A DNA stretch of 55,065 nt from a virus. Lineage: Duplodnaviria > Caudoviricetes. The stretch is from IMG/VR virus record IMGVR_UViG_3300031957_000171, positions 1-55,065 of that record, one strand, 5' to 3'. The position numbers were made by a program, and so were the translations under genes. Position 1 is the first letter of the stretch. Each line of letters opens with the position of its first letter. A model generated the notes under the pieces. The model was not told the origin of the DNA and did no database searches. It worked only from the letters and a program-made list of their open reading frames with translations. Below, piece by piece: positions 3,082 to 55,065 of the stretch.

Positions 3082-3287
3082 TGAAAAAAATGACACCCGC
3101 TGAATACCATAACTTAATTAATACCAGTACCTATGTTAGCAATCTTAACCAAGGTAATGTTATTGATCCATCTAGGTATCTATTAACACAGAAGATGGAA
3201 ACATTCAAGAAGATAAAATCTCAAGATGATTCTAACTTCATGGCAGATCAGACAAAGGCCCAGTCTAATTATGGAAGAGTAAAATAA
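3063..3287 (+). CDS. Hypothetical protein
   Basis: ORF tiling the operon; real start may be 3081 or 3090. Confidence 0.45.
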   Translation: MAEFKLMKKMTPAEYHNLINTSTYVSNLNQGNVIDPSRYLLTQKMETFKKIKSQDDSNFMADQTKAQSNYGRVK

Positions 3288-4036
3288 TGGCAACTTCACT
3301 TGAAGGCTTAGCAGACATACGAGAAGCACAGCAAAGAAAAGCCGAGCAACAGGCTGGAATGGTGCCGCCACAACAGCCAGTAGAGCTTTCTATAGGTGTT
3401 GGTGAAGCAGCTTTAGGTGGAATGAGTGAAGCTAATTTAAAACAAGGGTTTGCTGAAGAGGCAGCAGCTATGCAACAGCCTGTTTTACCAACTATATCGC
3501 CTACTGCTGAAATAAAACAAAATCTTAATAAAGTTCTTACAGCTACTCTTCCAGATGGTGATTCAATTGCTGCTAAAGCTTTAGAGGCTCTAACAAAAAG
3601 ATCTAAGATTGATCTATCTCAATCACAAGGATTACAAGAAAAAGCAGTTGGAAATAATGATATTATGTTAGCCATGCAAAGATATTCTCAAGATCAAAAT
3701 GCCGCAATAGAAAGTGGTGGCTTAATAGGTATGGCAGCAGGTGGCAGATTTTCCGGTCAAGTACAGGGACAAGGACATGGCATGGAAGATAATGTCTACA
3801 TGCCAATAGTAGAGAGACAAGAAGGAAGTCAGGTAGGTACATTAGCTGTTAGCCCTGATGAATATGTAGTAGACGCACACACAATGTCAGCACTTGGTAA
3901 TGGTAGTGCAGACGCAGGAGCAAATGTTATGGATCAAGTAATAGAAGGTGTGCGAGAAAAAGCATACGGTACAGATAAACAGCCAAATCAAATTAATGGA
4001 TTAGCTGCACTACGACCAATGATTGAAAGGGTATAA
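3287..4036 (+). CDS. Putative internal virion protein
   Basis: AAGG..GQGHGMED....S..EYVV motif of phage virion proteins; Ala/Gln-rich. Confidence 0.55.
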   Translation: MATSLEGLADIREAQQRKAEQQAGMVPPQQPVELSIGVGEAALGGMSEANLKQGFAEEAAAMQQPVLPTISPTAEIKQNLNKVLTATLPDGDSIAAKALEALTKRSKIDLSQSQGLQEKAVGNNDIMLAMQRYSQDQNAAIESGGLIGMAAGGRFSGQVQGQGHGMEDNVYMPIVERQEGSQVGTLAVSPDEYVVDAHTMSALGNGSADAGANVMDQVIEGVREKAYGTDKQPNQINGLAALRPMIERV

Positions 4037-4038
4037 CA

Positions 4039-6294
4039 ATGGGAATTTTTTCATCACTTTTTGGTTTCGGAGATAAGCCTACCAATACTAGTGCAAATGT
4101 AATTGCAGAGTATCCTGAAGAATTAAAAGAATATATTGAACAGGCTATGGCAGCTAATCAAGCAATATATGAACAAAGATTAGGGGAAGGATATAAACCT
4201 TATACTGGTCAGACTATTGCTGGATTTACTCCTGAAGAAATAGCTTCTCAACAAGGATTAAAATCTCTTGTAGGTTCACAAGGTGTACTACAGCAAGAAG
4301 CACTTGATCTTGCAAGGGGTTCTGATAGAAAGTTTACTTCAGAGACTGCTAAAGAGTATATGTCTCCTTATCTTAGGACTGCTCTTGATTCTCAAAAACA
4401 AGAAGCACAACGACAGTATGAACGTACAGCAGTTCCTGAGTTTGAACGTCAGGCTGTAGCTGCTGGTGGTATGAGTGGTCTTGGAAGTAGGGCTGGTGTA
4501 GAGGCTGCTGAAAGAGCTACAGGACAGAATAGGTTGTTGAGTGGCATAGAAGCTGCTGGACAACAGAAAGCTTTTGAAGCTTCACAAGAGGCTTTTAGAG
4601 ATCAAACTACTAGAGAACGTCAGGCTGCTTCACAAATATCAACTGCTGCTCCAAATATATTTAAGTCTGCTGTTGCTGAACAAGGCTTAATGCAGAATAT
4701 AGGAGAACAGAAAAGGGATTTAGCGCAAGGTACTTTAGATGAAGCTTACTTAAAGTATGTACAACAAAACCAGTTTCCAGAGTCAGAGCTTGCTCGTTAT
4801 CAATCTGCAATCTATGGTAATCCATTATTAAAACAACCTAATTATAGTACAAGTGGTACAGGAGGTGGTGGTGGTCCGGGCCTTGGTAAAACTTTACTTG
4901 GTTTTGGTAGTGCAGCACTGGGATTTGGTAGTGGTGGTGGTAGTTTCTTTGGTAATATGCTTAATAGGGCTGGCGGTGGTGGTATTGGTTCTACCATGAA
5001 AGCACAAGAGTATGTAAACAGAAACATGGGTGGTCCAGTAATGCCTCCTGTAATGTATAGAAAAAAAGGTAGTATAGATGATGAAACAAAAGAAGAATTA
5101 GGATTGTTTGGTTCTAGGAAAAAAGACTTAGACATGCGCCGAAAAGCTCCTTCTTTTCTTGTATCTAGAGATGAACAAGGTCTTCCTAGTATTGGTAATA
5201 TACCTTATGCAGATAAAATTCTAAAATCAAATGATACTCGTAGCTCTTCTCTTGCGGCATTAGAACGTGCCGCTCCTAATTCTGTATTAAGTCAGTCTAG
5301 AAATGAGGCAGCTACTGCTAATGCTCTTGATCCACAAGGAGCAAAAAAAGTTAGAGAAGACTTTACAGAATTTGGTGTCGCAGATGAAAGTGATGATGCT
5401 ATTACAAATCTAGAAAATAAACTTGTAGATCAACAGTCTCTAGCTACTGGTACTGACTCCGGTAAAAAAACCGGACCTTCGGGAATGACATCTCCAAAGG
5501 AAGCGGCACAAATAGCAACAACTGCTGCGGAGAAAGTAGCAAAGAATACGTTTGATAGTGCTTTAGTAATACAAAATATTAATAAAAAAACTTCTACTGA
5601 AGTTAAGGGACTTCTTAATTCTTTTGCTGAGAAATATAAAGCTCGTGCAAAAAGCGATCCATACAAAATGCAAAAGTTTTGGTTTACAGTTAGTGCTAAT
5701 ATTATGAAAAAGGGAAATGCTTTTGCTAATATGGCAGAAGGTTTACGTATAGCTGTAAATGATTTAGATACTACACGTAAAGAAAAAGATAAGTTGCTAA
5801 TGGATTTAGAAGATACAATGACTAAATCTAAGATAAAACTTGCTGGAAAAGAAGGCGAGTCTAATATAGCATATGAAAAATTAAACCTTAAACAAAAGAA
5901 TATGATTGCTAAATTAGGTACAACAGGTTTAGCAGCTTTCAATAAACAGATGAAAGAAAACGGTGATTACATAGCTGCCCTAGCTGCTGCTAAGAAAGCA
6001 GAAAATGCTGCTAAAAGACTAGATGCAAAAGACACAGACAAAGATAAGCTTAAAGTAAAAGACTTACAAGGTGTTCGTACTGCTGTAAATGATATGTTAC
6101 TGACATTAGGTGGAGCATTTGGAAGAATTGGAAAGGCACCACTTGGTACAAAACAATTAAACACACAAAATACTCTTGTAAGAATAGCTACAGCAATAGC
6201 AAATGGTGAAATGAATGGTCCTGATGGTAAGACTGGACCTGCTGCCGTTCCTGCATATTTAGCAAAAGCAGCTAGAGATTTAAGCAAGAAATAG
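4039..6294 (+). CDS. DNA ejection / pilot-like internal virion protein
   Basis: PYTGQTIAGFTP, YMSPY, Ala/Gln-rich helices, Gly-rich hydrophobic segment; position after nozzle. Confidence 0.6.
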   Translation: MGIFSSLFGFGDKPTNTSANVIAEYPEELKEYIEQAMAANQAIYEQRLGEGYKPYTGQTIAGFTPEEIASQQGLKSLVGSQGVLQQEALDLARGSDRKFTSETAKEYMSPYLRTALDSQKQEAQRQYERTAVPEFERQAVAAGGMSGLGSRAGVEAAERATGQNRLLSGIEAAGQQKAFEASQEAFRDQTTRERQAASQISTAAPNIFKSAVAEQGLMQNIGEQKRDLAQGTLDEAYLKYVQQNQFPESELARYQSAIYGNPLLKQPNYSTSGTGGGGGPGLGKTLLGFGSAALGFGSGGGSFFGNMLNRAGGGGIGSTMKAQEYVNRNMGGPVMPPVMYRKKGSIDDETKEELGLFGSRKKDLDMRRKAPSFLVSRDEQGLPSIGNIPYADKILKSNDTRSSSLAALERAAPNSVLSQSRNEAATANALDPQGAKKVREDFTEFGVADESDDAITNLENKLVDQQSLATGTDSGKKTGPSGMTSPKEAAQIATTAAEKVAKNTFDSALVIQNINKKTSTEVKGLLNSFAEKYKARAKSDPYKMQKFWFTVSANIMKKGNAFANMAEGLRIAVNDLDTTRKEKDKLLMDLEDTMTKSKIKLAGKEGESNIAYEKLNLKQKNMIAKLGTTGLAAFNKQMKENGDYIAALAAAKKAENAAKRLDAKDTDKDKLKVKDLQGVRTAVNDMLLTLGGAFGRIGKAPLGTKQLNTQNTLVRIATAIANGEMNGPDGKTGPAAVPAYLAKAARDLSKK

Positions 6295-6308
6295 AGAAAA
6301 TTAATAAT

Positions 6309-9300
6309 ATGGTAACACTACCTCAAGCTCCTTCAATACTTGATAGTATATCTAATTTATCTTCTGATGTTAAAAATATTCCTTTAGAGGGTGAAATTAA
6401 AAGCAGCTCTTCTTTACCTCAAGCTCCTTCAATACTTGATAGTATATCTAAAACTGAACAACCCACTGAAGTTGAGGTAGATGAGAAGGCTACTCCAGCT
6501 ACACTAGGTAGTAATGAAACATGGCTTGCTTCTGCTAAAGCAATTTATGAAGATGAAGTAGGTGAATCATTTGATCCAGAAGAAGCTGGCTATGATAATA
6601 TATCTGATTGGTTTGAGAACAGGCATTCTAAATATAATTGGAATATTGTCAACATGCTTGATACAGGTTTTAGTGTTGATGAAAAAAGTAACGATGTTAA
6701 AAAAGCTTGGCTAGACTCTATGGATTTATATGATGAATCAGACTCAGATGCAGGTGATTTTTTTAGAGCAGCCAAGAACGTACTACTAGACCCTACAACA
6801 ATAGCAAGTTTATTAGCTACTTTTGGTGTAGGAACTGCTGCAAAATTAGGTGGTCAAAAAGTTGCTGCGTTGGCAGCCAAGACAACCTTTAAGCAAAATC
6901 TTAGGGAACAGTTAAAGAACAAAGTCAGTAAAGAAACTATTGAAGAGATTATAAAGACTAAAGGTTCTAAAGATATAACGGCTGAAGCTTTAAAGACTGC
7001 TAGAAATAAAGCAGCTTTACAGACTGTTGGATATAAATCATTAACTATGATTCCTGTTCCTGCTGCATATTCTTCTGCCTATGACGTAGCTGAACAAGAG
7101 ATGGAATTAAATACATTAATTCCAGAGGACGTAGCTTTTCAACAGGGAATTTCTATTGAAGAAGCTACTAAACAAATAGAAGATAAAAAACGTGAAGGTT
7201 ATGATCTAGCAAGCATAGCTAAAGCAGCAGCATTGGGTGGTACTTTTGGTGCGTTGCTTGGTCCTCTTCCTACATACATAGGTAGTAAGATAGGAATGAA
7301 GAAGGCTCTCAGAAAGAGTAAAGAAGGTGCTGATGATTTAATAGATGTAAAATATTCTCCTGTGGGAAATCCTAATTTATCAGTTAGAGAAAAAATGTCT
7401 AGGGAAAAATTTAATAAACTTTCTCAAGACGGGGGCATTGATACTGTTGCGTACAAAAGTATAACCGAAGCTCCTCAACGTGCAACAAATAATCCTAAAG
7501 TTAATATAGATGGCGAACAGATTATTGAAAGAGTTCTACCAGATGGAACTACTGTAAAAACTGTTAGACAAAAAATAACAGAAAAAATTGCTGATATAGG
7601 TGGAGAACGTCTTGCTAATATTAATACTGTAGCAGGTCGTTGGCTTACATCTACAGCAGCATTACCAACTACTATTGCTAGGGCAGCACGGCAGCGTAGT
7701 AATGGAACTAAGGCTGCTCAAATGAAAATAGAATCTTCTTTAGATAATTTAAAATCTCTTCAGAAGAAAGAAAAAATTAGTGAAGCTGCTGTTACTAGGT
7801 TTATAAATAATAATGATGACACTCTTATAAAATCTGAAAAGGGCGAAGCGTCTGAAACTTTAAATAAACTTAATGAGATTAAAAAAGATATCTTTGACAA
7901 CCAAGAAAAGATTAATACTCTTGCTGGTAAAAAAACAGATGAAGAGTTAATGCGTGAAGCTAAGTCTTTATCAACTAAGTCTTCTCAAGATGAAGCTGAA
8001 ATATTTAAAAATCTTAGAGAAAAAGAAAACAAAATAGGTGTGGCTTTTGGAGAAGACGGTGGTTACTACTTCAGAACTTACGAAGCTTCGTATAATCCCA
8101 AGTATTTAAAAGAAATAGAAAATGCTTTAAGTGCGAAAGGTATTGCTAAAAGCGAGTTCATTATAAAAGTACAAGATTTTAAACAAGCTTTAAGAGAACA
8201 TCCTGACTTTAAAAAAGCTAATGAAGGTAAGCTTGATGATACTGTTTTAAATCTTGTTAATAGATTATCTAAAGATGACACTACTTTATTTGACCAACCG
8301 TTCAAAATTATTGAAGATTTTCTAGGATCAACCTCTGCTTCTAAGGGTGGCACAAGAGTTGGTAGGCGGAAAGAAATAGATACAGCCCTACTTAATCTAC
8401 TGGGTGAGGTAAAAGACCCGTACACTAAAATTAGTAACACTCTTGCTAAACAAAACAGAATTATATCTGAGCTACAATATGTTGATGATGTGAATAAGTT
8501 TTTTCAAAACATACTTACAAAAAATTCAGATGTTAATTTAAATCTAGGTGGCCTTGTTAATGCTCTTCCTACTACTCAAGCACGAGCAAGTCGTAAAGAG
8601 TTAAGAGGAACAACTTCTAAATCATTAAATAATTTATATGAAGAAATACTTGGTGATAAGGCTAAAAAATTAAATACTAATTCTAGCAATTTACCTAAAG
8701 AAATTTATGTTGATCCAAACATGGACAAGCTTATTCGTGATGGATTAGACAGTGTTTTTCCATCATCAAATAAAAATAGTGGTGGTGTAGGTAATGCTAT
8801 ATGGGGTGGTCTTCAACAAGCAGCAGCCTTTGGGCAGTCTACTCAAACAATTTTAGATTATCCTGCATACTTTATTAATTCTTATGGCGCAGTGCAAAAC
8901 TTAATAGCCAGTGGACATTTATTTAATAAATCAGCTTGGAAGAGTCTTCGTAGATCAGGCCAAGAAATGAGAAAGGGTATTAGAAATAAAGACCCAGAAG
9001 TACTAGAGTATATTACCAAATTAAAAAGAGATGGCGTAATTGATAGTGATCTCACATCAGAAATGATTATTAGAAATCTTAATCAAAACAGTGGCACTAT
9101 GGCTGGTGGTCCTTTTGTGCAAACCTATAAAAAAGGGATGGAAAAACTTTCTCGTGCCTATGGTTCTCCAGATACCTATGCAAAAATTATAGCACATAAG
9201 TCTGAGACTGCTGCACTAAAGAAGATGTTTCCTAAAAAGAGTGTTGATGAAATATTTGAAATGGCTTCTGATAGAGTTGTTAATACTATGCCTACCTATG

Positions 9301-11399
9301 GCGCAGCCAATCCAGCGGCAAGGTTCTTAGGTAGAATACCTTTTGGTACATACGCTTTGTTTCCTACAGAGATGTTACGTACAACAAAAAATATAATTAA
9401 GTATGCTGTTAAAGATATTAAAGAAGGCGTGGCTACAGGTAACAAAGCACAAGTTATTAATGGTATGCGTAAAGTTGTAGGTCTAGGTGCTACTGGTGCT
9501 GGTATCGGTGCGGCTGTTGATACTAATAATACAATGTATGGTATCACTGAAGATGACAAGAGAGCTTTAGATGCTGCTGCTCCTGACTGGGGTAAAGGTG
9601 GTAATCCTTTATTTTTAGAAGGTATAGTTGAAGATGCTCAAGGTAAGATTATAACTAGAAATGTTAGGTCTGCAAATTTTGATGCTCAAGATTATTTAAA
9701 AGTACCTCTACGGTTGATGACAGGTAAGATACTTGCTGGTGAAAATGTAACTGATCTTGAAATAGAAGATGCTATTAAAGCAATGGGAAGTTCTATCCTT
9801 GGCCCATATACTAATACTAAGTTTATATATGAAGCACTGGCTAATGTAGTTACTGGTGTTGATTTAGAAACTGAAAGACCTATCTATTCAACAATTAGTG
9901 ATGAAGCTGGCTTCTCTTCTGAGAATATTAAGAGAGCTATTCTTGAATTAGGTAGCAGTCTTATTCCCGGTTCTATTGAACCTTTGATTAAATATTCAGA
10001 ATCAAGTGCTGCTGCTGAAGTTACTAAAGATGGTAAGGGTCTTAGTAAGTCTGGCTTTCCTTTGAGAGAGAACGATATTATTACATGGGCAACAAGTGGT
10101 ATACGTCCTTCTACTATTGATGTTAAAAAGTCTATTGGATATAGCTTATCTAAACAAATAAAAGACATGGCCCAAAGTAAAAAAGCTTTTGAAAACTTTA
10201 TTCGTACTATGCCAGTTAAAGATTATAGTAAACCGGACAACATGCAGGAGCTTCTAGATGTCTACAAAAAATATCAAGATTTAAAAGTTTCATCAAGTAG
10301 AAGACTTGCTGATAAAATTAACTTGTTTAAGAATATAAACTATACAGATAGTAGTGGTGAGCGTAGAAAGTTTGGTCTTGAGCAAGTTATAATGGCTGCT
10401 ACTAACGATGGGTTTTATAAAAATAAAGAGGGCGTAGAAGCTATTGCCTTGGCTGATGCTGAATTAGATAATTATAGACGTGGTATTTTCTTACCAGATG
10501 ATATAAATGATAATGATAATTTTGTTAAGATGCTTACTGATAAGGGTGTACCTCTTAGTATCTTTAGCGAGTTAGCTAAGATTAATAGAACTTACTATGA
10601 GAAGATGGATGAAGGTCTGGTAAAAATGGCTAGAGGTGGGTCTATTACAGACATGCTGCCCACAGTAAACGTAGTAGCACCTCCTATAGCAAGGGGTTCT
10701 TTTAATCTGCCTTCCCTTGAAGAGCTTAGAGAAAAAGAACTAGCAATGGGAAGAGGTGTCAAAGAAGCAGAAGTAGAACCTACTGTAACTCCTGTAGAGA
10801 TTGCACCAGTACTGCCTAATGTCATACCAGAAGTTGAAGATCGTAGTCGTACTGCACCACTATCTCCAGAGAAGCCACCTGTACCTAAAGACTTTAAAAA
10901 TATTATGTTTGATAATGTTATAGAAAGATTAGGAGTAAAGCCTGACGATCAAGAGAAAGCTTATACAAATTTAGAAAAGTTTGCAGAACTAACTAGAAAT
11001 ACAGAAAGTAGTAACGATTATACAGTAAAGAATAAGGCTGTTCGTGGAAAGAAAGCTACTACTGCAAAGGGAGCTTATCAGTTTGTAGATGATTCAATAG
11101 TTCCAGCACTCAATAGATTAAAAAGATTAATTGGTGAACAACCTTGGATGACTGAATTGAGAAAAAGCAATGATATTTTTTCATTAACAAATAGACAGCA
11201 AGACTTACTTTTTTTTGGAGATATGTTTGAAAAAACAGTAGATAAAAAAACAGGTGTAGGGGATAAGCTTCTTAAAAAAATTATGAAAGGTGATAAGGAG
11301 GCTATGCTCCAAATGTACAAAAAAGCACATCATACAGGTAAGCTACCACCAGAAGCTTTAAAGAATGCACGAAGAAATTTTTTAAAAGGAACTAAATAA
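6309..11399 (+). CDS. Large internal virion (ejectosome) protein with C-terminal lysozyme-like/transglycosylase domain
   Basis: 1696 aa helical protein with Gly/Ala hydrophobic segments; C-terminal TES...AKGAYQF motif. Confidence 0.65.
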   Translation: MVTLPQAPSILDSISNLSSDVKNIPLEGEIKSSSSLPQAPSILDSISKTEQPTEVEVDEKATPATLGSNETWLASAKAIYEDEVGESFDPEEAGYDNISDWFENRHSKYNWNIVNMLDTGFSVDEKSNDVKKAWLDSMDLYDESDSDAGDFFRAAKNVLLDPTTIASLLATFGVGTAAKLGGQKVAALAAKTTFKQNLREQLKNKVSKETIEEIIKTKGSKDITAEALKTARNKAALQTVGYKSLTMIPVPAAYSSAYDVAEQEMELNTLIPEDVAFQQGISIEEATKQIEDKKREGYDLASIAKAAALGGTFGALLGPLPTYIGSKIGMKKALRKSKEGADDLIDVKYSPVGNPNLSVREKMSREKFNKLSQDGGIDTVAYKSITEAPQRATNNPKVNIDGEQIIERVLPDGTTVKTVRQKITEKIADIGGERLANINTVAGRWLTSTAALPTTIARAARQRSNGTKAAQMKIESSLDNLKSLQKKEKISEAAVTRFINNNDDTLIKSEKGEASETLNKLNEIKKDIFDNQEKINTLAGKKTDEELMREAKSLSTKSSQDEAEIFKNLREKENKIGVAFGEDGGYYFRTYEASYNPKYLKEIENALSAKGIAKSEFIIKVQDFKQALREHPDFKKANEGKLDDTVLNLVNRLSKDDTTLFDQPFKIIEDFLGSTSASKGGTRVGRRKEIDTALLNLLGEVKDPYTKISNTLAKQNRIISELQYVDDVNKFFQNILTKNSDVNLNLGGLVNALPTTQARASRKELRGTTSKSLNNLYEEILGDKAKKLNTNSSNLPKEIYVDPNMDKLIRDGLDSVFPSSNKNSGGVGNAIWGGLQQAAAFGQSTQTILDYPAYFINSYGAVQNLIASGHLFNKSAWKSLRRSGQEMRKGIRNKDPEVLEYITKLKRDGVIDSDLTSEMIIRNLNQNSGTMAGGPFVQTYKKGMEKLSRAYGSPDTYAKIIAHKSETAALKKMFPKKSVDEIFEMASDRVVNTMPTYGAANPAARFLGRIPFGTYALFPTEMLRTTKNIIKYAVKDIKEGVATGNKAQVINGMRKVVGLGATGAGIGAAVDTNNTMYGITEDDKRALDAAAPDWGKGGNPLFLEGIVEDAQGKIITRNVRSANFDAQDYLKVPLRLMTGKILAGENVTDLEIEDAIKAMGSSILGPYTNTKFIYEALANVVTGVDLETERPIYSTISDEAGFSSENIKRAILELGSSLIPGSIEPLIKYSESSAAAEVTKDGKGLSKSGFPLRENDIITWATSGIRPSTIDVKKSIGYSLSKQIKDMAQSKKAFENFIRTMPVKDYSKPDNMQELLDVYKKYQDLKVSSSRRLADKINLFKNINYTDSSGERRKFGLEQVIMAATNDGFYKNKEGVEAIALADAELDNYRRGIFLPDDINDNDNFVKMLTDKGVPLSIFSELAKINRTYYEKMDEGLVKMARGGSITDMLPTVNVVAPPIARGSFNLPSLEELREKELAMGRGVKEAEVEPTVTPVEIAPVLPNVIPEVEDRSRTAPLSPEKPPVPKDFKNIMFDNVIERLGVKPDDQEKAYTNLEKFAELTRNTESSNDYTVKNKAVRGKKATTAKGAYQFVDDSIVPALNRLKRLIGEQPWMTELRKSNDIFSLTNRQQDLLFFGDMFEKTVDKKTGVGDKLLKKIMKGDKEAMLQMYKKAHHTGKLPPEALKNARRNFLKGTK
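6321..6451 (+). repeat. 35-nt direct repeat encoding PQAPSILDSIS twice
   Basis: cctcaagctccttcaatacttgatagtatatctaa at 6321 and 6417. Confidence 0.85.
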
Positions 11400-33741: not shown

Positions 33742-33755
33742 GTCAATTACCTTTC

Positions 33756-33807
33756 TTAATTAACGCCCTGTAGTATCACTATGTTCTACTACAGGGCTAA
33801 TAATTAA
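33756..33807 (-). repeat. Early-region hairpin element 4
   Basis: gccctgtagta-tcactatgttc-tactacagggc. Confidence 0.85.
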
Positions 33808-33977
33808 CTTCCAAAAACCTGATATCTTACTTCGTCGCAATCGTCATGAGTTGACACGTAAAAACCTTTTTGGGTGTACAAGTCAACTCCAGTTCCTCCT
33901 GTGGAGGGATAAGCAATCAGCCCATCAGTTGCCATATCAAGCTCTGCTTGGAGGTAGGTTATGTCGTTGATCTTCAT
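33804..33977 (-). CDS. First early gene (57 aa, not in ORF track)
   Basis: GGAG RBS; MKINDITYLQAELDM... Confidence 0.5.
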   Translation of the reverse strand: MKINDITYLQAELDMATDGLIAYPSTGGTGVDLYTQKGFYVSTHDDCDEVRYQVFGS

Positions 33978-34013
33978 GGTAAAACTCCGTTGGTTGAGGT
34001 TGGTAGTTATAAT

Positions 34014-34064
34014 CTAATTAATCTCTTTAGTATCGTAAGATACTCTACTAAAGATATTAATTAG
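34014..34064 (-). repeat. Early-region hairpin element 5
   Basis: tctttagta-tcgtaagatactc-tactaaaga. Confidence 0.85.
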
Positions 34065-34292
34065 TATATCGTCTCTGCTTTGTCAAGCCTCTCGTCAAAA
34101 TGCTTTGCATTTCGTCACGGCACCTTTGGTGCTTGACATGGTGCAATGTGTTGGATTGTGTAACAATCACAACGACTTAGCATGGTTTGCCAAGAGTTTA
34201 CGTAGTAAGCCAATCTGCCATACCATCCCTCTTCGGGATGATTTACGTAGTAACTGTGACAAATTTGCAACAGTTTGGCTGAAGTTTCCTTA

Positions 34293-34343
34293 CTAACTCT
34301 TTGTAAAGTCTTCGTAAGAACTTAGACTTTACTACAGAGTTAG
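34293..34343 (-). repeat. Early-region hairpin element 6 (divergent)
   Basis: gtaaagtct-tcgtaagaactt-agactttac. Confidence 0.7.
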
Positions 34344-34567
34344 ATAGGGACTCCTACGGAGTCCTATGTGACACATCGTCGCACTATGTAGTGGGGGTAG
34401 GGGGAAAAACGCACCCGCATGTATATATATATATAACACCTATGACATATATTTAGAAAATAACTCGGACTTCTAATCAAAATAAAAATGGCTGCGGCTG
34501 TAAAGTACGATCTGCGCCTATTAAGTTACTTTAATATATATTATTTATATTTATTTTAACTTTATAG

Positions 34568-34596
34568 TTGTACTATAGAATTATATAGTGTATAAT
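34568..34596 (+). promoter_or_regulatory. Sigma70-like promoter for terL (probably leaderless)
   Basis: TTGTAC-N17-TATAAT, ATG 7 nt downstream, no SD. Confidence 0.6.
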
Positions 34597-34603
34597 AGTA
34601 ACT

Positions 34604-36148
34604 ATGGAGTTACTAGAGAATACTAATGAGTACCTACAACCCTACATTAACTTAAAGGGACTGTTAGATACTAAGATAGAACAAGACTGTAAAGATGATT
34701 TCCTGACATTCGTCAAAGTCATGGCACCTATGATGGTGTCTGACTGGAAGATGGGTCGTCATATTGAAGTTATATCAAATAAATTAAAAGATTTAGAGAA
34801 TGGTAAGATAAAACGACTGATGGTCTTTCTTCCACCACGGTCTTCTAAGTCTGTTATCTGCTCTAAGCTCTTCCCAGCTTGGTATATTGGTAGAAATCCT
34901 GCACATGAGATACTGACTGTCTCCCATAGTGACCAATTGTCCAGTGATTTTGGTAGGTCTGTCCGTGATGTGGTGGGTACTGAAGAGTTTGAGAAGATAT
35001 TTAAAGGAGTCTCTTTAAGAAGCGACGTCAGAGCTGCTGGTAAGTGGAAGACAAACCACAATGGGTCTTACTATGCAGCTGGTGTGCGTTCACAGATAGC
35101 TGGACGTGGTGCTCACATAGCTATACTGGATGATGTGATGTCTGAAGAGGACGCCATTAGTGCTTCAGGCAGGAGATACATCAAGGAATGGTATCCAGCG
35201 GGGCTTAGAACCCGCATCATGCCCAATGGGGCTATAGTAATTATTAATACACGCTACCACTATGATGATCTCTGTGGTTGGTTGTTAAAACAACAAGAGA
35301 ATATGGGAGAGTTTGAAACAATCCCATGGGAAGTAATTAGAATACCTGCATGGGTTGACGAAGAAGCAGCAGAATTGCTTGACTTACCTGTAGGCTCTAG
35401 TTACTTTCCCGAATGGAAGTCCGATGAAGTCTTACGCATGGATGAGAGTGAGATCAAAGCCTCCAATGGCAGTAGATACTGGAATGCTCTCTACATGCAA
35501 GACCCCACACCTGAAGAGGGTGGTATTATTAAGAAGAAATGGTTGAAATACTGGGATGATGAAGAACCACCTAGCTGTGATTTTATAATTCAAACATATG
35601 ATACTGCTTTCTCTACACGGACTACAGCTGACTACAGTGTTATCCAGACATGGGGTATATTCTCCATGTATAACCAAGATGATAATGGTTTAGAAGACTT
35701 AACCCCTAACTTAATCTTGCTAGGGAACATTAGAGGTAGGTTTGAGTACCCAGAACTAAGAAGGATTACTCAGAAACTGTATGATGAGCATAGACCAGAT
35801 GTGTGTATGGTTGAGAAGAAAGCCAGTGGACAGTCTTTGTTACAGGATATGCGTAGGAGTGGTCTCCCTGTAATGGAGTACACACCAGACAGGGATAAGG
35901 TATCCAGAGTGTACTCAGCTTCTCCAATCATTGAGGCTGGTAGAATGTGGATACCAAGTAAAAAGAAGTGGTCAGATGAATTAGTAGAGGAATTACTTAG
36001 GTTCCCCAATGCTGCTCACGATGACCAAGTAGATGCAATGACAATGGCTATCCACTACATGAAAGAGTCTTGGCATCTAACACATCCAGATGATCCAGAC
36101 CTTGAAGACTCACCACCAACTAAAAAGAAAACTTACTGGTCTTTCTAA
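34604..36148 (+). CDS. terL: Terminase large subunit
   Basis: PPRSSKS Walker A, AILDD Walker B, YDTA, VEKKASG, HDDQVDA. Confidence 0.95.
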   Translation: MELLENTNEYLQPYINLKGLLDTKIEQDCKDDFLTFVKVMAPMMVSDWKMGRHIEVISNKLKDLENGKIKRLMVFLPPRSSKSVICSKLFPAWYIGRNPAHEILTVSHSDQLSSDFGRSVRDVVGTEEFEKIFKGVSLRSDVRAAGKWKTNHNGSYYAAGVRSQIAGRGAHIAILDDVMSEEDAISASGRRYIKEWYPAGLRTRIMPNGAIVIINTRYHYDDLCGWLLKQQENMGEFETIPWEVIRIPAWVDEEAAELLDLPVGSSYFPEWKSDEVLRMDESEIKASNGSRYWNALYMQDPTPEEGGIIKKKWLKYWDDEEPPSCDFIIQTYDTAFSTRTTADYSVIQTWGIFSMYNQDDNGLEDLTPNLILLGNIRGRFEYPELRRITQKLYDEHRPDVCMVEKKASGQSLLQDMRRSGLPVMEYTPDRDKVSRVYSASPIIEAGRMWIPSKKKWSDELVEELLRFPNAAHDDQVDAMTMAIHYMKESWHLTHPDDPDLEDSPPTKKKTYWSF

Positions 36149-36174
36149 AAAACGTAGTTTTACTACATTTAAAT

Positions 36175-36203
36175 TTGGATAACAATAAAAAGTATGGTAT
36201 AAT
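36175..36203 (+). promoter_or_regulatory. Sigma70-like promoter
   Basis: TTGGAT-N17-TATAAT with TGn; shares aagtatggtataatag with the 41333 promoter. Confidence 0.55.
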
Positions 36204-36206
36204 AGA

Positions 36207-36611
36207 ATGGTAAGTGAATTAGAAAAAGTATTGCTTATATTATCATTGTCTAACAGACATGAGAATTGGAATGTGAAAGATATACAGAGATTGGTTATAC
36301 CGCCACTAAAATTAAACCAATACAGAATATATATAGATGAAGAAGTTCCGCTGTGTTATGCAAGCTGGGCAATGTTTCCAAAAGAAGCTGACGAAGGTTA
36401 TAAAAATAAAACCAGAAAGATTCAACCAAAAGACTGGGATAGTGGGAATAACCTTTGGCTGGTAGATGTGATATGTCCTTTTGGAGGTACACGTAGTGCA
36501 ATTAAAAGATTAGACACTTTAAGAAAAGAACTGGGATTACCAGATAAAGTAAATTTTTATAGAGGCAAACGGTTGGGGAGCAATAGAGTAAATAATGTTA
36601 CACGAATTTAA
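36207..36611 (+). CDS. RTX toxin-activating lysine acyltransferase (HlyC/RtxC family)
   Basis: SxxH (SNRH), [29 protein letters not shown]. Confidence 0.85.
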
Positions 36612-38049
36612 AAGACCAATGTGGAATGACGGTTACTCTAAGGAGCAGCCTTGGCTTAACTATTTTAATAGCTACGAACGTACGCACTGTTGCTTTGAGG
36701 GTGATCCTGAGGGTGATGAGAGTGGTGGTGATGATGACATCACGAGTGGTGGCACTGGAACTAGCACTGGAACTGGCACTGGCACTGGAACTGGCACTGG
36801 CACTGGTAGTGGCACTGGTAGTGGCACTGGTGTTGGTACAGGTAGTGGCACTGGTGTTGAGGACGAAATAGTAGATGTCGCACCTGAGGGCTTTTCAATT
36901 GGGCCGGGTACTGGTGGTGGCACTGGAACTGGTGGCACTGGAACTGGTGGCACTGGAACTGGTGGCACTGGAACTGGTGGCACTGGAACTGGTGGCACTG
37001 GTGGTGGTTGGGGTGAACCTGACATTCCCAATCCCGAAGATTTTTCATGGTCTGCATCCAAAGGTTTTACTGCGCCTTCCGTAACATCGGCAACTACAGC
37101 CGATGATTTGGAAACAATCGGAGTAGACAATATTACAGACTTAGCTACAATGCAAGCTATGTATAATAATCCTGATGCTTATGGTGTAGGTTATAATGAT
37201 TTTGTAGACATGGGTTATTTTGAAAAGGCTGCAGCTGCGGATTATGAACGGGAGAAAGCTGCTGCTGCTGCCCTTCAAGCCTCTTATAGAGATAAAGGTA
37301 AGGATGTTACTATAAGTGTAAATAAAGATGGTCTTTATAACTATACGGGTAAAGACGCATTTTCAGTCGGATACAGCGAGATGGGTAAGGGTGCTGAACT
37401 TCTAGGACGAAATTTTGGCATTGGAAGTGTTGTGGATGGTTTTAACAGAGCATTTGGAACAACTGACGAAAAAGCCGGAATAAGTACGGTTGCTGGGGGC
37501 GAGTATTATGGAGGCTTGCGAGAAGAAGATATAACTTCTGAACAAATAGAAGCTTCTAGGGGAGGATCTAATTCTAGTGATGGTCAATCTGATTCTAGTG
37601 ATGATCAATCTACTTCACAACAAAATGAAGATGACACTTTTGGAGAAGATGAACCTGATGAAGGTGTAGACGATACAGATACAGATACAGAGACATCTAC
37701 AACAGAATCTGAAGAAGAAGAAGAAGCACCAGAAACTGCTATGGAAGCATACTTTAGAAAATTAGGAATTGCCAGCCCTGCCCTTACCGTTCCTTCTACT
37801 TCTCCCTCTTATTTTCAAGGGTATCCTTCTTACTTACCACCAACAGGACCAGCCGCTAATGCAGCTTATCGCAGAAAATTAGCATTAAGAACTCCTAGAT
37901 ATCAGGAACCTTCAGGAACAAATCCTAGTATTGCTACATATGCAGCAGCATATGGAATACCATATACAGAAGCTGCCAAGAAGTTTGCACCACCAAGTGT
38001 CCCCGCAATGGGTGGTGGTGGTCTTCGTAGTTTGATGGAGTATAAATAA
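36595..38049 (+). CDS. Gly/Thr-rich, acidic low-complexity protein (putative virion protein)
   Basis: 484 aa; overlaps acyltransferase and portal genes; (GT)n and (GGTGT)n tracts. Confidence 0.65.
36748..37003 (+). repeat. Tandem 6-/15-nt coding repeats (GT, GGTGT)
   Basis: ggcactggaact and ggtggcactggaact arrays. Confidence 0.85.
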
Positions 38050-40529
38050 TGGCTACAGAACGCAATCCCTTTGATAAGATACCTGAAGGTACAGAGACTA
38101 ATATAATTGCTATGATGCCTGAAGAAAATTCTAATGTCTCTATTGAGATTGATCCTACTGATGGCGGTGTAATTGTAGACTTCTCTTCTGAAGAAGATGC
38201 AGTCATGGAACCATCAGAAGAAATCAGTGAATGGTATGCTGACCTAAGTGAAGACCTCGAAGCAGAAGAACTACAGGATATTGCCAGTGATGTAATTGAA
38301 AATTTTAATGCAGATAAAGATAGTCGTGCTGAATGGGAGTCTATGTTTGAACGAGGCTTTGACCTACTTGGTCTCAAGCTGGAAGAAGGTTCAGAACCAT
38401 TCCAAGGTGCATGTACTGCTGTACATCCCCTCCTAATTGAATCGGCTGTCAAGTTCCAATCAAAAGCTTCAGGTGAGTTGTTCCCTGCCAGTGGCCCTGT
38501 CAAGGCACAGATACTTGGTGCTGCAACTCCAGAGAAAGAGATGCAAGCCAACAGAGTTCAGAACTTTATGAACTTCCAGCTTACTGAACAGATGCCTGAG
38601 TACTTTGATGAATTTGAAAGGATGCTTTTTCATCTACCATTAATAGGTTCAGCATTCAAGAAAGTTTATTATAATGCTACACTGAAAAGGCCCGTATCAG
38701 AATTTATCCCCATAGACCAGTTCTATGTGTCTTACTACGCAAACGATCTCAGAAATGCGGACCGATATACTCATGTAATTCAAAAAAGCCCAGTAGACAT
38801 GAAGTTGGACATGATGTCTGGTGTCTATAAAGACATTGAACTTCCTGAACCAGCCCAGCTTTCTGCATCAGGGTTTGCCAGCAAGATAGATAATATTCTT
38901 GGTCTTTCTCCATCATATGATTCTGATCCACAGTATGTTATCTTAGAACAACATTGTTATCTTGATCTTGAAGAAGAGGGTGTACCTTGCCCTTATATCG
39001 TAACTGTTGAAGAACAGTCAAGACAAGTTTTAAGTATTCGTAGAAACTACAAGCAAGACGATCCAAACAAAGAGAAACGAAGTCACTTCGTTCACTATAG
39101 GTTTGTTCCCGGCTTTGGTTTCTACGGGTTGGGCCTTATCCATTTCCTCGGTAACCTCACCATGTCGGCAACTGCTGCAATGCGCTCCCTAATAGATGCA
39201 GGACAGTTTGCCAATTTACCGGGCGGATTTAAGGCCAAGGGAGTGCGGATGGTTGGTGACAACGATCCTATCGCCCCCGGCGAGTTCAAGGAGGTCGAAG
39301 CAACTGGTATTGATTTATCAAGGGCAATAGTTCCCCTGCCTTATAAAGAGCCTTCCCAAACGCTCTTCCAGATGCTTGGGTTCGTGACTGCTGCTGGTCA
39401 GAAGTTTGCGGACAGTACTGAGCAAGTTATCTCTGATGCTGCCTCCTATGGACCCGTGGGTACTACAATGGCATTGCTAGAAGCTTCAAGTAAGTTCTTC
39501 TCTGCAATCCATAAAAGATTACATAAATCACAGAAGGATGAATTTAGAATCCTTGCACAAATAGATTATGATTATCTACCTGATAAGTATCCATACCAAG
39601 TACCATTTGAAGATCGTGATATCTTCAAGGCTGACTTTGATGGACGTGTAGATATTATTCCTGTCTCTGATCCTAACATTCCATCCAATGCCCATCGTAT
39701 GATGTTGTCTAACATGGCTTTGCAAATGGCACAGCAATCCCCACCGGGAATGTTTAACATTGAAGAACTGAATAGGACTATTCTTAGTGCTGCTAATATG
39801 CCTAACCTAGAGCAGATACTTCCACCAAAGATTGAGCCTCAACCTCTTGATCCTGTATCAGATATCATGGCTGTTACAAAGGGTCTGCCTATTGCAGCCT
39901 TCCCGTCTCAGAACCATGATGCCCACATACAAGTTAAGATGATGTATCTTCAAGACCCAGCAAATGGTGCTAATCCTATCATGGCTCGTATCAAACCTGT
40001 ACTTGAATCTAACATACAAGAACATTCTGTACTGAAGTATCAAGAACAAATGAATGGTGTTACATCACAGATGCTACAGCAAGTTCCGGTAGAACAACAA
40101 GGACAGTCTACTGTTATTGAGATGGCTATGGCGGAGGCTGCACAAAAAGTTATGCAAGCCAATCAACAACCACCACCGCCTACACCAGAACAACAACTGG
40201 TTGCTCTTGAACAGGAGAAGGTTAAACTACAGCAACAGAAGCTTCAAGCTGATACAACAATCAATGCTGCTGAACTTGAGCTTAAAACAAAAGAGCTTGA
40301 TCTTAAAGAGAATGCACAAATACTTGATATGCTTGAGTCTGGTGCTACTGATAACTTTAAACGTGAGAAAGCTGAAGCAGACCGAGAAACAAAGAAAGAA
40401 TTATCAGCAATGAATAATCTTGCTAAGATAGAAGTTGAAAGAATGAAAGACGAAAAAGATACAGAGAATACTAAAGTTAATACACTATCTCGTGTAGCAA
40501 TAGAAGAAATGAAAAAGGGAGACAGCTAA
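38049..40529 (+). CDS. Portal protein
   Basis: 826 aa after terL; HPLL.E, GSAFKK, PGFGFYG, VGTT.ALLE; Gln-rich coiled-coil tail. Confidence 0.85.
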   Translation: MATERNPFDKIPEGTETNIIAMMPEENSNVSIEIDPTDGGVIVDFSSEEDAVMEPSEEISEWYADLSEDLEAEELQDIASDVIENFNADKDSRAEWESMFERGFDLLGLKLEEGSEPFQGACTAVHPLLIESAVKFQSKASGELFPASGPVKAQILGAATPEKEMQANRVQNFMNFQLTEQMPEYFDEFERMLFHLPLIGSAFKKVYYNATLKRPVSEFIPIDQFYVSYYANDLRNADRYTHVIQKSPVDMKLDMMSGVYKDIELPEPAQLSASGFASKIDNILGLSPSYDSDPQYVILEQHCYLDLEEEGVPCPYIVTVEEQSRQVLSIRRNYKQDDPNKEKRSHFVHYRFVPGFGFYGLGLIHFLGNLTMSATAAMRSLIDAGQFANLPGGFKAKGVRMVGDNDPIAPGEFKEVEATGIDLSRAIVPLPYKEPSQTLFQMLGFVTAAGQKFADSTEQVISDAASYGPVGTTMALLEASSKFFSAIHKRLHKSQKDEFRILAQIDYDYLPDKYPYQVPFEDRDIFKADFDGRVDIIPVSDPNIPSNAHRMMLSNMALQMAQQSPPGMFNIEELNRTILSAANMPNLEQILPPKIEPQPLDPVSDIMAVTKGLPIAAFPSQNHDAHIQVKMMYLQDPANGANPIMARIKPVLESNIQEHSVLKYQEQMNGVTSQMLQQVPVEQQGQSTVIEMAMAEAAQKVMQANQQPPPPTPEQQLVALEQEKVKLQQQKLQADTTINAAELELKTKELDLKENAQILDMLESGATDNFKREKAEADRETKKELSAMNNLAKIEVERMKDEKDTENTKVNTLSRVAIEEMKKGDS

Positions 40530-53758: not shown

Positions 53759-55065
53759 ATGGCAAGCACGTACACAACAAATCTAAGACTCACAAAGCAA
53801 GGAGATGGTGAAAACCCTAATAGCTGGGGCCAAATCCTTAATGATGGAGTTATTAGTCTTGCTGATGAAGCTATTGCTGGTTATACTACTATATCAATTG
53901 GTAGTGCAGCTACTGTTAACTTGACAGCTAACGACGGTGCTGATGATCAGTCACGGTCTGCTTTCTTAGAAATTCAGGGATCAATAGGAACTGTTGCCAC
54001 TTCTATCTTCTTGGTAATTCCTAATAAAACTAAATCATACTCTGTATTAAATAAAGTATCTGCCAATGCTACTAGTAATGTAGTTATGATGCGAGTTGCT
54101 GGTAATACAGGTGTAACACTAAGTAGGTCATCTACTTTATTTCAACATGTAGTTTGTGATGGGACTTCTGTACGTAGTGTAACTCAAGTAGATGCTGAAC
54201 TTAATACTCTAACTGTATTAGGTACTGTAACTGTTGTTGGAAATGCAGTATTTGCTGGTGACATCCAAAAGAAAACAGCAGGTACATCTAACTTTGCTGC
54301 GGGTGTTAATGCTGGTAATTCAATAGAGTCAGGGGGCAACTACAATGTAGTCATTGGCGATGAAGCTGGTACGGCGCTCACAACGGGTGATAACAATGTT
54401 GCGGTGGGTTATGCTGCTCTTGATGCTAACACCACAGGAACACAGAACAATGCTTTAGGTGCTTCTGCTTTAACTGACAACACTACAGGTGACTACAACA
54501 ACGCAATGGGTGTAAGTGCTTTAGGCGACAACACTACTGGTGATAATAATACTGCGGTTGGTCACGATGCTTTAAGATTAAACACCACAGCTGATAATAA
54601 CACAGCAATAGGCTATACCGCACTAGATGCAAATACCACTGGTGCTAGTAACGTAGCCCTTGGCAGAAATGCACTTGGTGCTAACACGACTGCTAGTAAC
54701 AACACAGCACTCGGACATAATTCCCTTCTTCTCAACACCACTGGGGCTAGTAACGTAGCAGTCGGCGCTTCTGCTCTTGATGCAAGTACAACTGGAGATA
54801 GTAACGTAGCTGTTGGTAATAATGCACTTGGTGCTAACACTACTGCTAATAACAACACAGCAGTCGGAAATAGTGCCCTTCTTCTCAACACCACAGGAAC
54901 ACAGAACAATGCTTTAGGTGCTTCTGCTTTAACTGACAACACTACAGGTGACTACAACAACGCAATGGGTGTAAGTGCTTTAGGCGACAACACTACTGGT
55001 GATAATAATACTGCGGTTGGTCACGATGCTTTAAGATTAAACACCACAGCTGATAATAACACAGC
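53759..55065 (+). CDS. Tail fibre 2, N-terminal part (runs off the window end; continues at 91-814)
   Basis: AGGAG RBS; MASTYTTNLRL..QG.GEN..SWG anchor domain, then NTxG repeats; no stop before 55065. Confidence 0.85.
   Translation, partial: MASTYTTNLRLTKQGDGENPNSWGQILNDGVISLADEAIAGYTTISIGSAATVNLTANDGADDQSRSAFLEIQGSIGTVATSIFLVIPNKTKSYSVLNKVSANATSNVVMMRVAGNTGVTLSRSSTLFQHVVCDGTSVRSVTQVDAELNTLTVLGTVTVVGNAVFAGDIQKKTAGTSNFAAGVNAGNSIESGGNYNVVIGDEAGTALTTGDNNVAVGYAALDANTTGTQNNALGASALTDNTTGDYNNAMGVSALGDNTTGDNNTAVGHDALRLNTTADNNTAIGYTALDANTTGASNVALGRNALGANTTASNNTALGHNSLLLNTTGASNVAVGASALDASTTGDSNVAVGNNALGANTTANNNTAVGNSALLLNTTGTQNNALGASALTDNTTGDYNNAMGVSALGDNTTGDNNTAVGHDALRLNTTADNNT
54428..55065 (+). repeat. 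Exact 179-nt direct repeats (54428-54606, 54887-55065); 149 nt also at 146-294
   Basis: Identity read by eye. Confidence 0.85.

Follow-up and report, generated by a model that had tools for sequence, protein, structure and literature searches.

We examined a pair of overlapping genes that lies between the terminase and portal genes of a tailed phage (Caudoviricetes; IMG/VR record IMGVR_UViG_3300031957_000171). The first encodes a protein of the toxin-activating acyltransferase (TAAT, or HlyC) family, and the second a protein that we call the partner. The whole stretch of DNA that we analysed, here referred to as the window, is a complete genome of 55,065 bp with direct terminal repeats. On its plus strand, the late operon runs from the gene for the terminase large subunit (TerL; 34604..36148) through the HlyC-like open reading frame (ORF) of 134 amino acids (aa; 36207..36611) and the 484-aa partner ORF (36595..38049) to the portal gene (38049..40529), a GroES-like gene and the gene for the major head protein, beyond which lie tail-spike-like and tail-fibre-like proteins and an endolysin. 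An original prediction, made from the sequence alone, had described an HlyC-type ORF that overlaps its neighbour and is coupled through it to the portal, and had proposed that the two form a protein lipidation system. Both couplings are as described: the HlyC and partner ORFs overlap by 17 nucleotides (nt; 36595..36611), such that the HlyC stop codon TAA shares two bases with the codon for partner residue K6, and the partner stop codon shares 1 nt with the portal ATG.

By sequence and by structural model, the 134-aa protein is a shortened member of the TAAT/HlyC family that has the TAAT (GNAT-like) fold and an intact catalytic dyad. It matches the HlyC profile PF02794 at 94.7 bits against a cut-off of 25 (E 5e-27) over profile positions 4-100 of 127, and in a six-frame search of the genome the gene scored 94.2 bits against the same profile. 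Alignment to ApxC (4whn) with HMMER is gapless (E 3e-10) and places H18 and D87 opposite the ApxC His (His24) and Asp. These residues (codons 36258-36260 and 36465-36467, plus strand) lie in the motifs S15-x-x-H18 and W84-x-x-D87-x-x-x-P-F-G that had been recognised originally, at a spacing of 69, as compared with 70 in the acyltransferase CdiC. To our knowledge, ApxC is the one TAAT whose structure has been solved. An AlphaFold2 (AF2) model of the window enzyme has a predicted local distance difference test score (pLDDT) of 81.9, with residues 120-134 of low confidence (pLDDT below 50). In a Foldseek search with this model, the top matches in the PDB are three ApxC chains (E 2.9e-7 to 2e-6, TM 0.64-0.66), and the next are generic GNATs (E 0.025 or worse).

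The original description of a genome with no RTX toxin or type I secretion genes also holds. The complete 55-kb genome gave 0 matches to the RTX repeat profile PF00353 and 0 matches to PF00005 (ABC_tran) and PF13437 (HlyD_3), the last two of which matched 14/14 and 12/14 positive-control genomes, respectively. A six-frame search with an RTX regular expression gave one match, on the minus strand at 33899; it falls inside the coordinates of an unrelated ORF of 57 aa, and we took it for chance. We found no match to an acyl carrier protein (ACP) gene in the genome; hence, any acyl donor must come from the host.

The partner is acidic (net charge -46), rich in Gly (17%) and Thr (12%), as originally noted, and mostly disordered. 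An AF2 model assigns a pLDDT below 50 to 316 of its 484 residues, and the only confidently folded part is a domain of helices and a beta-hairpin at residues ~178-266 (37126..37392; pLDDT about 90), with conserved blocks GYND..GYF and D-V-x-V..G-x-Y-x-Y. G246 is the sole invariant residue of this domain among 16 partners. We detected no Pfam family (at E up to 1) or PHROG family, no CdiA/FHA domain, no GG.G.D motif and no evident secretion signal in the partner, and no match to it in deposited phages by tblastn. Its model gave 0 matches at E 0.001 or better in a fold search of BFVD, nothing informative in a VIA-align comparison with 48,161 chains (best Z 4.4, over residues ~217-276 only), and no lead in the ESM Atlas (feature scores <=0.78, structure TM <=0.24; the entry starts at M9). 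The partner is hypervariable: its length among relatives varies between 300 and 945 aa and the mean identity per aligned column is 27%, and the TerL and portal proteins that flank related cassettes are 73-100% identical to those of the window, except for one short match. Part of the variability lies in repeats. Two tandem-repeat tracts in the DNA encode Gly-Thr runs (36750-36855, 12 nt x 8.8; 36915-37001, 15 nt x 5.8 at 100% identity), and an acidic Ser/Asp/Thr/Glu low-complexity tract with short tandem repeats follows at 37566..37726. In assembled contigs from public seawater runs, we found an in-frame 3-nt insertion at 36983 and further in-frame insertions or deletions of 3 or 6 nt at 37671 and 37711, indicating that the repeat length of the partner varies in natural populations. 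The protein ends in a Gly-run/hydrophobic tail (38005..38046) directly before the portal gene.

By contrast with the rest of this hypervariable protein, an N-terminal domain of residues 1-37 (36595..36705), which we call the handle, is conserved. Of its ~37 positions 23 are invariant, including K6, K16, two Trp (W10 and W20) and a His-Cys-Cys-Phe sequence that begins with H31, C32 and C33. A profile search of 1.84 billion representative proteins placed the handle at the extreme N-terminus in 48/48 proteins. Gene callers begin 18 of these 48 representative partners at M9; the sequences favour M1 as the start, because its ATG is invariant, indels between M1 and M9 are absent from 25/25 junctions, and an AGAG/AGGG element occupies positions -10 to -7.

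The two genes are found together wherever the pairing could be assessed. IMG/VR contains 19 loci with HlyC homologs 81-99% identical to that of the window; the partner is directly downstream in all 19, and the portal gene is next in 15, which are all those whose contig extends that far. A search from the partner side, using a profile of the first 45 residues, retrieved 37 viral loci, two of which are on contigs that begin inside the partner. In the 35 with upstream sequence, an HlyC homolog (51-99% identity) invariably overlaps the partner start, and in 31/31 with a complete partner the portal gene follows within 0-17 nt. When 57 metagenome loci were added, many of them the same contigs as the viral ones, the HlyC motif was upstream in 47/47 distinct testable HlyC/partner combinations. 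The overlap register is identical in 25/25 distinct junction sequences. Since the same gene pair occurs in every testable related locus, we conclude that it is more than chance; the pairing described in the original prediction is conserved among related viral loci. Two RNA-labelled runs, each from a different study, yielded contigs that cover HlyC and run across the HlyC/partner junction, which is weak evidence since such libraries can contain DNA; transcript ends and levels lie outside the reach of the comparison with assembled contigs, and stretches that no contig covers carry no meaning.

Judged by its sequence, the phage is a distant member of the HTVC023P-type (vSAG 37-F6-like) marine podophages, because its portal protein is 41-43% identical to those of HTVC023P/027P, 023Pt_psg01, DSL-LC04 and CRP-901/902, and the GroES-like and major head genes have the same order as in these relatives, yet blastn of the locus against deposited phages gave no nucleotide-level match. 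HTVC023P/027P are labelled as Pelagibacter phages and CRP-901/902 as Roseobacter phages. A preprint connects the HTVC023P group with the viral single amplified genome (vSAG) 37-F6 and with ocean viral clusters of very high abundance (10.1101/2019.12.14.876532). In seven named phages, the TerL-portal junction holds varied content and no HlyC gene: it is empty in CRP-901 and Pag-Yong1, and contains a tRNA in Caulobacter phage RW, one basic 201-aa ORF in HTVC023P, one PcfJ-like ORF in DSL-LC04, and two large ORFs in HTVC027P and 023Pt_psg01. Hence, the HlyC-partner pair is an accessory cassette in a cargo slot rather than part of the core genome. BLASTP of the partner against the slot proteins of HTVC023P/027P and the neighbours of pelagiphage HlyC-like genes returned low-complexity noise (E 0.07 or worse).

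HlyC-like genes are also found elsewhere among phages, and their possible annotation in marine phages had been anticipated. A broader HlyC profile retrieved 203 IMG/VR stretches; of the best 80, which we kept, 48 are distant (25-34% identity; L141-L188). All five representatives tested pass the Pfam HlyC threshold, and the match to the profile extends to positions 115-118 in distant phage homologs. Tyr occupies the His column in 47/47 full-length sequences, and the Asp column is acidic in 48/48 (27 D, 21 E). At each of the 46 loci with downstream sequence, the HlyC-like gene overlaps a large downstream gene; further overlapping pairs of this kind are at L002:5992-9686 and L003:5932-7622. The encoded proteins form two homology clusters: in one, of 38 loci, representatives match the central tail fibre J (gpJ) family, and in the other, of 8 loci, the proteins have hydrophobic N-termini and, in 2/3 representatives tested, weakly tape-measure-like C-termini. 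By comparison with the gene order of lambda, the distant HlyC-like gene lies between the tail-assembly genes and gpJ. Among cultured pelagiphages, HlyC-like genes are annotated in HTVC103P (gp34), HTVC104P, HTVC112P (gp46) and HTVC115P (gp46); they are PF02794-type genes of 25-32% identity, each overlapping or abutting the next gene. Those of HTVC112P and HTVC115P lie inside structural modules and fit the pattern of the distant loci.

The reading that we favour, to which we give slightly less than an even chance, is that the window enzyme acylates an amine near the partner N-terminus using host acyl-ACP, and that alleles lacking the dyad only bind. The cassette consists of two accessory genes in the variable TerL-portal slot of an HTVC023P-type podophage, and the partner is modular, with a 37-residue handle, disordered acidic and Gly-Thr linkers, one folded domain and a short C-terminal tail. 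Under this reading, the enzyme would draw a fatty acyl chain from host acyl-ACP and attach it to a handle amine (K6/K7 or K16); because the genes overlap, this may take place during translation of the partner. The result would be a hypervariable protein with a lipid anchor, produced alongside the portal. Its place in the slot, its link to the portal gene and the pairing of HlyC genes with tail proteins in other phages make it plausible that the partner has a role in the virion or at the envelope. The tail-tip and tape-measure-like partners of those genes fit the broader idea that proteins in contact with the envelope are lipidated, which was part of the original prediction. As for the proposed lipidation system as a whole, TAAT family membership, the dyad, universal coupling and an implied host donor speak for it; the sites first suggested for acylation do not, and the dyad-less sister proteins complicate it.

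Co-inheritance of enzyme and handle is consistent with a modification at the handle. We divided 45 distinct HlyC/partner combinations by the residue at the Asp column. In the Asp class (23/45), His is kept in all 18 for which that segment is on the contig, and the median ratio of nonsynonymous to synonymous substitution rates (dN/dS) is 0.16 (229 pairs). Partner residue 36 separates the two enzyme classes perfectly, being G or S in 23/23 Asp-class pairs and D or E in 22/22 Asn-class pairs; hence, the enzyme and its handle are passed on as one unit. K16 is retained in 23/23 Asp-class and 16/22 Asn-class pairs, a hint in the sequences of an association with the Asp class. A complex prediction for HlyC with partner residues 1-45 scored 0.01 (mark 0.32), which counts neither for nor against binding.

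Several observations weigh against acyl transfer to the handle. The remaining 22 of the 45 distinct cassettes have Asn for Asp and F, Y or L for His, and wider protein matches add F/D and H/I or H/T dyad combinations. The dyad-less alleles pass the Pfam HlyC threshold at 79-86 bits and are under purifying selection (median dN/dS 0.25, 183 pairs). A TerL tree of 21 loci requires at least four switches of class on near-identical backbones, 0% of bootstrap TerL trees allow a single origin of class, and the window TerL has as its sister (98% identity) the TerL of a phage whose allele lacks the dyad. Two old alleles have thus been shuffled among near-identical backbones. Because dyad-less alleles are selected and swapped in, acyl transfer is dispensable for whatever role the pair has in those phages, and the pair must have a conserved function besides it. 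The lysines are equivocal too. The handle, K6 included, is equally conserved beside dyad-less enzymes; the six losses of K16 all fall in one divergent lineage and represent roughly one evolutionary event; and the most divergent partners share no universal lysine, having either lost K16 or replaced the Lys-containing basic pair before PMW with Arg-Arg. Given that two bases of the K6 codon also belong to the HlyC stop, residue 6 could only be Lys or Asn, and the invariance of K6 is therefore partly forced; we rejected the idea that function is proven to be what keeps K6 invariant. With 134 aa and a Pfam match that stops at position 100 of 127, the enzyme is short, and its binding of ACP may be impaired as a result. 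Finally, acyl transfer itself, its donor, its site and any membrane or virion location of the partner are inferences, and the putative location is a further weak point.

The dyad-less sister proteins probably bind the handle without acylating it. The main rival to our favoured reading extends this to the dyad-bearing proteins too, such that the HlyC-like protein would be mainly a non-catalytic binder of the handle (a chaperone, adaptor or assembly factor) and the dyad a leftover or the means of an optional modification. We consider this unlikely, and rank it first among the alternatives. It accommodates well the dyad-less alleles, which are common, selected and interchangeable on the same backbone, and a handle that is equally conserved beside both enzyme classes, as well as the Tyr in the His segment of the distant clades and the place of their gene between tail-assembly genes and gpJ. 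However, strict retention of His and Asp at a low dN/dS in the class to which the window belongs would be unexpected for a relic, and all the distant clades keep D or E at the Asp column. Moreover, H-to-A TAAT mutants are partly active and D-to-A mutants are not (PMC8510554).

Should the enzyme instead have its target elsewhere, in another phage protein such as the portal or an ejection protein, in a host protein or in a small amine, co-regulation alone would explain why it is linked to the partner; we regard such a target as rather improbable. GNAT-fold enzymes have very diverse acceptors, generic GNATs rank directly after ApxC in the fold search, and direct contact between enzyme and partner is putative. 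Against an unrelated target stand the invariant overlap register, the perfect co-segregation of enzyme class with partner residue 36, and the position of TAAT genes directly upstream of the known or presumed substrate gene in RTX systems, in contact-dependent inhibition (CDI) systems and in other phage clades.

The original prediction had placed acylation at three Gly-Lys dipeptides. These are present (K236, K253 and K265; nt 37300-37389), and all three fall within the middle domain of the partner, the only one that is confidently folded in the model. TAATs are reported to recognise folded segments rather than short motifs. Gly-Lys is also the context of the acylation sites in HlyA (PMC8510554). 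Nevertheless, the lysines are unconserved: among 12 aligned partners, those of KGKD and TGKD are replaced (by P, A, Y, L or R) in most and that of MGKG is kept in about half, and the shortest relatives have no Lys in that hairpin, where G246 alone is invariant among the 16 partners. Acylation at these sites is therefore very unlikely. We give almost no credence to the view that the phage carries a virulence or auxiliary gene with which an RTX toxin of the host is activated. That view is suggested by a marine-virome survey in which hlyC, called a toxin gene, ranks with the commonest 'virulence genes' encoded by phages (Silveira et al. 2020; PMC7003362). Against it, the genome has neither RTX repeats nor type I secretion genes, the gene is always joined to a phage-specific partner inside a late structural operon, and half of the alleles lack the dyad.

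The RTX TAATs (HlyC, CyaC and ApxC; PF02794; 4whn) resemble the window enzyme in sequence family, in fold, in a dyad with the same spacing and in gene order, with the presumed substrate encoded immediately downstream of the enzyme, as hlyA is of hlyC. They differ in that the window genome has no RTX protoxin or type I secretion genes, the window enzyme has 134 aa as against 169 residues in the ApxC chain, its candidate site lies near the substrate N-terminus rather than at an internal Gly-Lys, and many of its sister alleles have no dyad. A closer mechanistic parallel is provided by class IV CDI, in which CdiC acylates Lys1467 in the receptor-binding domain of CdiA, a substrate that is neither RTX nor Gly-Lys (PMC8510554). 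The CdiC dyad is His37/Asp107; D107A abolishes modification and H37A keeps partial activity, and in the proposed mechanism the Asp deprotonates the target lysine (PMC8510554). As in the window, the TAAT gene of these systems adjoins its substrate gene. Substitution of the acylated Lys of CdiA is confined to systems in which cdiC is absent or not functional (PMC8510554), and the confinement of K16 loss to the Asn class parallels this. Unlike CdiA, the phage partner has no CdiA/FHA or other Pfam domain, and the resemblance is mechanistic only. The HlyC-like genes of cultured pelagiphages differ from that of the window in having no His at the catalytic column and in what lies downstream. In HTVC112P the downstream protein is a tail protein resembling gpJ, in HTVC115P it is hydrophobic and 417 aa long, and in HTVC103P it has 107 aa and is coiled-coil-like.

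A wider proposal, which we put forward as doubtful, is that tailed phages have repeatedly recruited TAATs to place a lipid at or near the N-terminus of the next-encoded protein, be it gpJ, tape-measure-like or portal-linked, and that in the marine group described here both allele types are shuffled so that lipidated and unlipidated forms coexist. If true, bacterial viruses would have an equivalent of the N-myristoylated proteins with which eukaryotic viruses enter cells. Examples of these are picornavirus VP4 and reovirus mu1, which are modified by the host N-myristoyltransferase with acyl-CoA as the donor. The analogy is functional only, in that a lipid is placed on or near the N-terminus of a membrane-contacting virion protein by a GNAT-fold enzyme; enzyme family and donor differ, and a virion or entry role for the partner described here is conjecture.

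Phage HlyC-like genes are already annotated in pelagiphages, and we found no characterised example in the literature searched. Specifically, we found no characterised phage TAAT, partner, handle or active/inactive allele pair, although supplementary tables may list such genes. The pelagiphage preprint names HlyC in one figure legend only, and the main text of a study of 80 HTVC023P-type genomes (PMC9599517) contains none of the terms acyltransferase, HlyC, hemolysin, toxin, portal or hypervariable. We found no virion proteomics, and cultured relatives do not carry the cassette. Should the enzyme be active on its neighbour, the pair would be the first phage-encoded protein lipidation system in the literature searched and the second non-toxin use of a TAAT, after CdiC, and 'hlyC' in marine viromes could be reread as a phage-internal modification module rather than a toxin activator. 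Dyad-bearing and dyad-less alleles on near-identical backbones constitute a natural experiment on what the lipid is needed for. The HTVC023P-type group is reportedly one of the most abundant phage groups of the surface ocean (10.1101/2019.12.14.876532).

A sigma-70-like promoter match (TGGATA-16-TATAAT with an extended -10 TG; 10/12 consensus matches) lies at 36176..36203 on the plus strand and ends 4 nt before the HlyC ATG. The evidence is weak, since the region has 7 promoter-type sites as compared with 11.9 in shuffled sequences, and thus no excess; if real, the promoter would give a leaderless or nearly leaderless HlyC transcript. In about 12 related loci, a subset of the dyad-bearing relatives, an additional ORF of 97 aa follows TerL and runs into the start of HlyC (e.g. 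L009:3670-3963, L014:5712-6005); residues ~37-59 of its product form a hydrophobic segment. The ORF is absent from the window, where the gap is 36149-36206. To judge from its sequence, this ORF may be a third member of the cassette or a holin-like small membrane protein. The first ORFs after TerL in HTVC023P, HTVC027P and 023Pt_psg01 have Gly-Gly-[Leu/Met]..hydrophobic ends that resemble the partner C-terminus (L024:5336-5941, L025:1618-3069, L116:646-2493). These ORFs are otherwise unrelated, one being strongly basic (+39), and the Gly-run/hydrophobic tail may be a common docking peptide of slot-encoded proteins.

At the distant HlyC-like loci, the downstream proteins begin with Met-Gly in 46/46 cases, which represent only two homology clusters. 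Among gpJ homologs without an HlyC gene, that of lambda begins with Met-Gly and those of JenP1, Vid5 and D149 do not. Acylation of the N-terminal glycine of these downstream proteins is offered as a lead only. ORFs of ~135 aa upstream of gpJ in JenP1 and Vid5 were ruled out as HlyC, being DUF6950/NlpC-like.

Elsewhere in the window, an 860-nt stretch (33742-34603) between the leftward early/replication genes and TerL contains no ORF of at least 90 aa. There is no small-terminase candidate directly upstream of TerL in the window, a difference from CRP-901 and Caulobacter phage RW. Downstream of tail-fibre and virion-protein genes, three consecutive large ORFs (249, 751 and 1696 aa; 3287-11399) have no PHROG match; by position and by size, for which T7 serves as the comparison, they could be internal core or ejection proteins. 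The ORFs open at the two ends of the window (53759-55063 and 2-814) match the same tail-spike/virion-protein PHROGs (phrog_23837 and phrog_4636), consistent with one tail-fibre region split by the terminal repeat of the record or by an arbitrary start.

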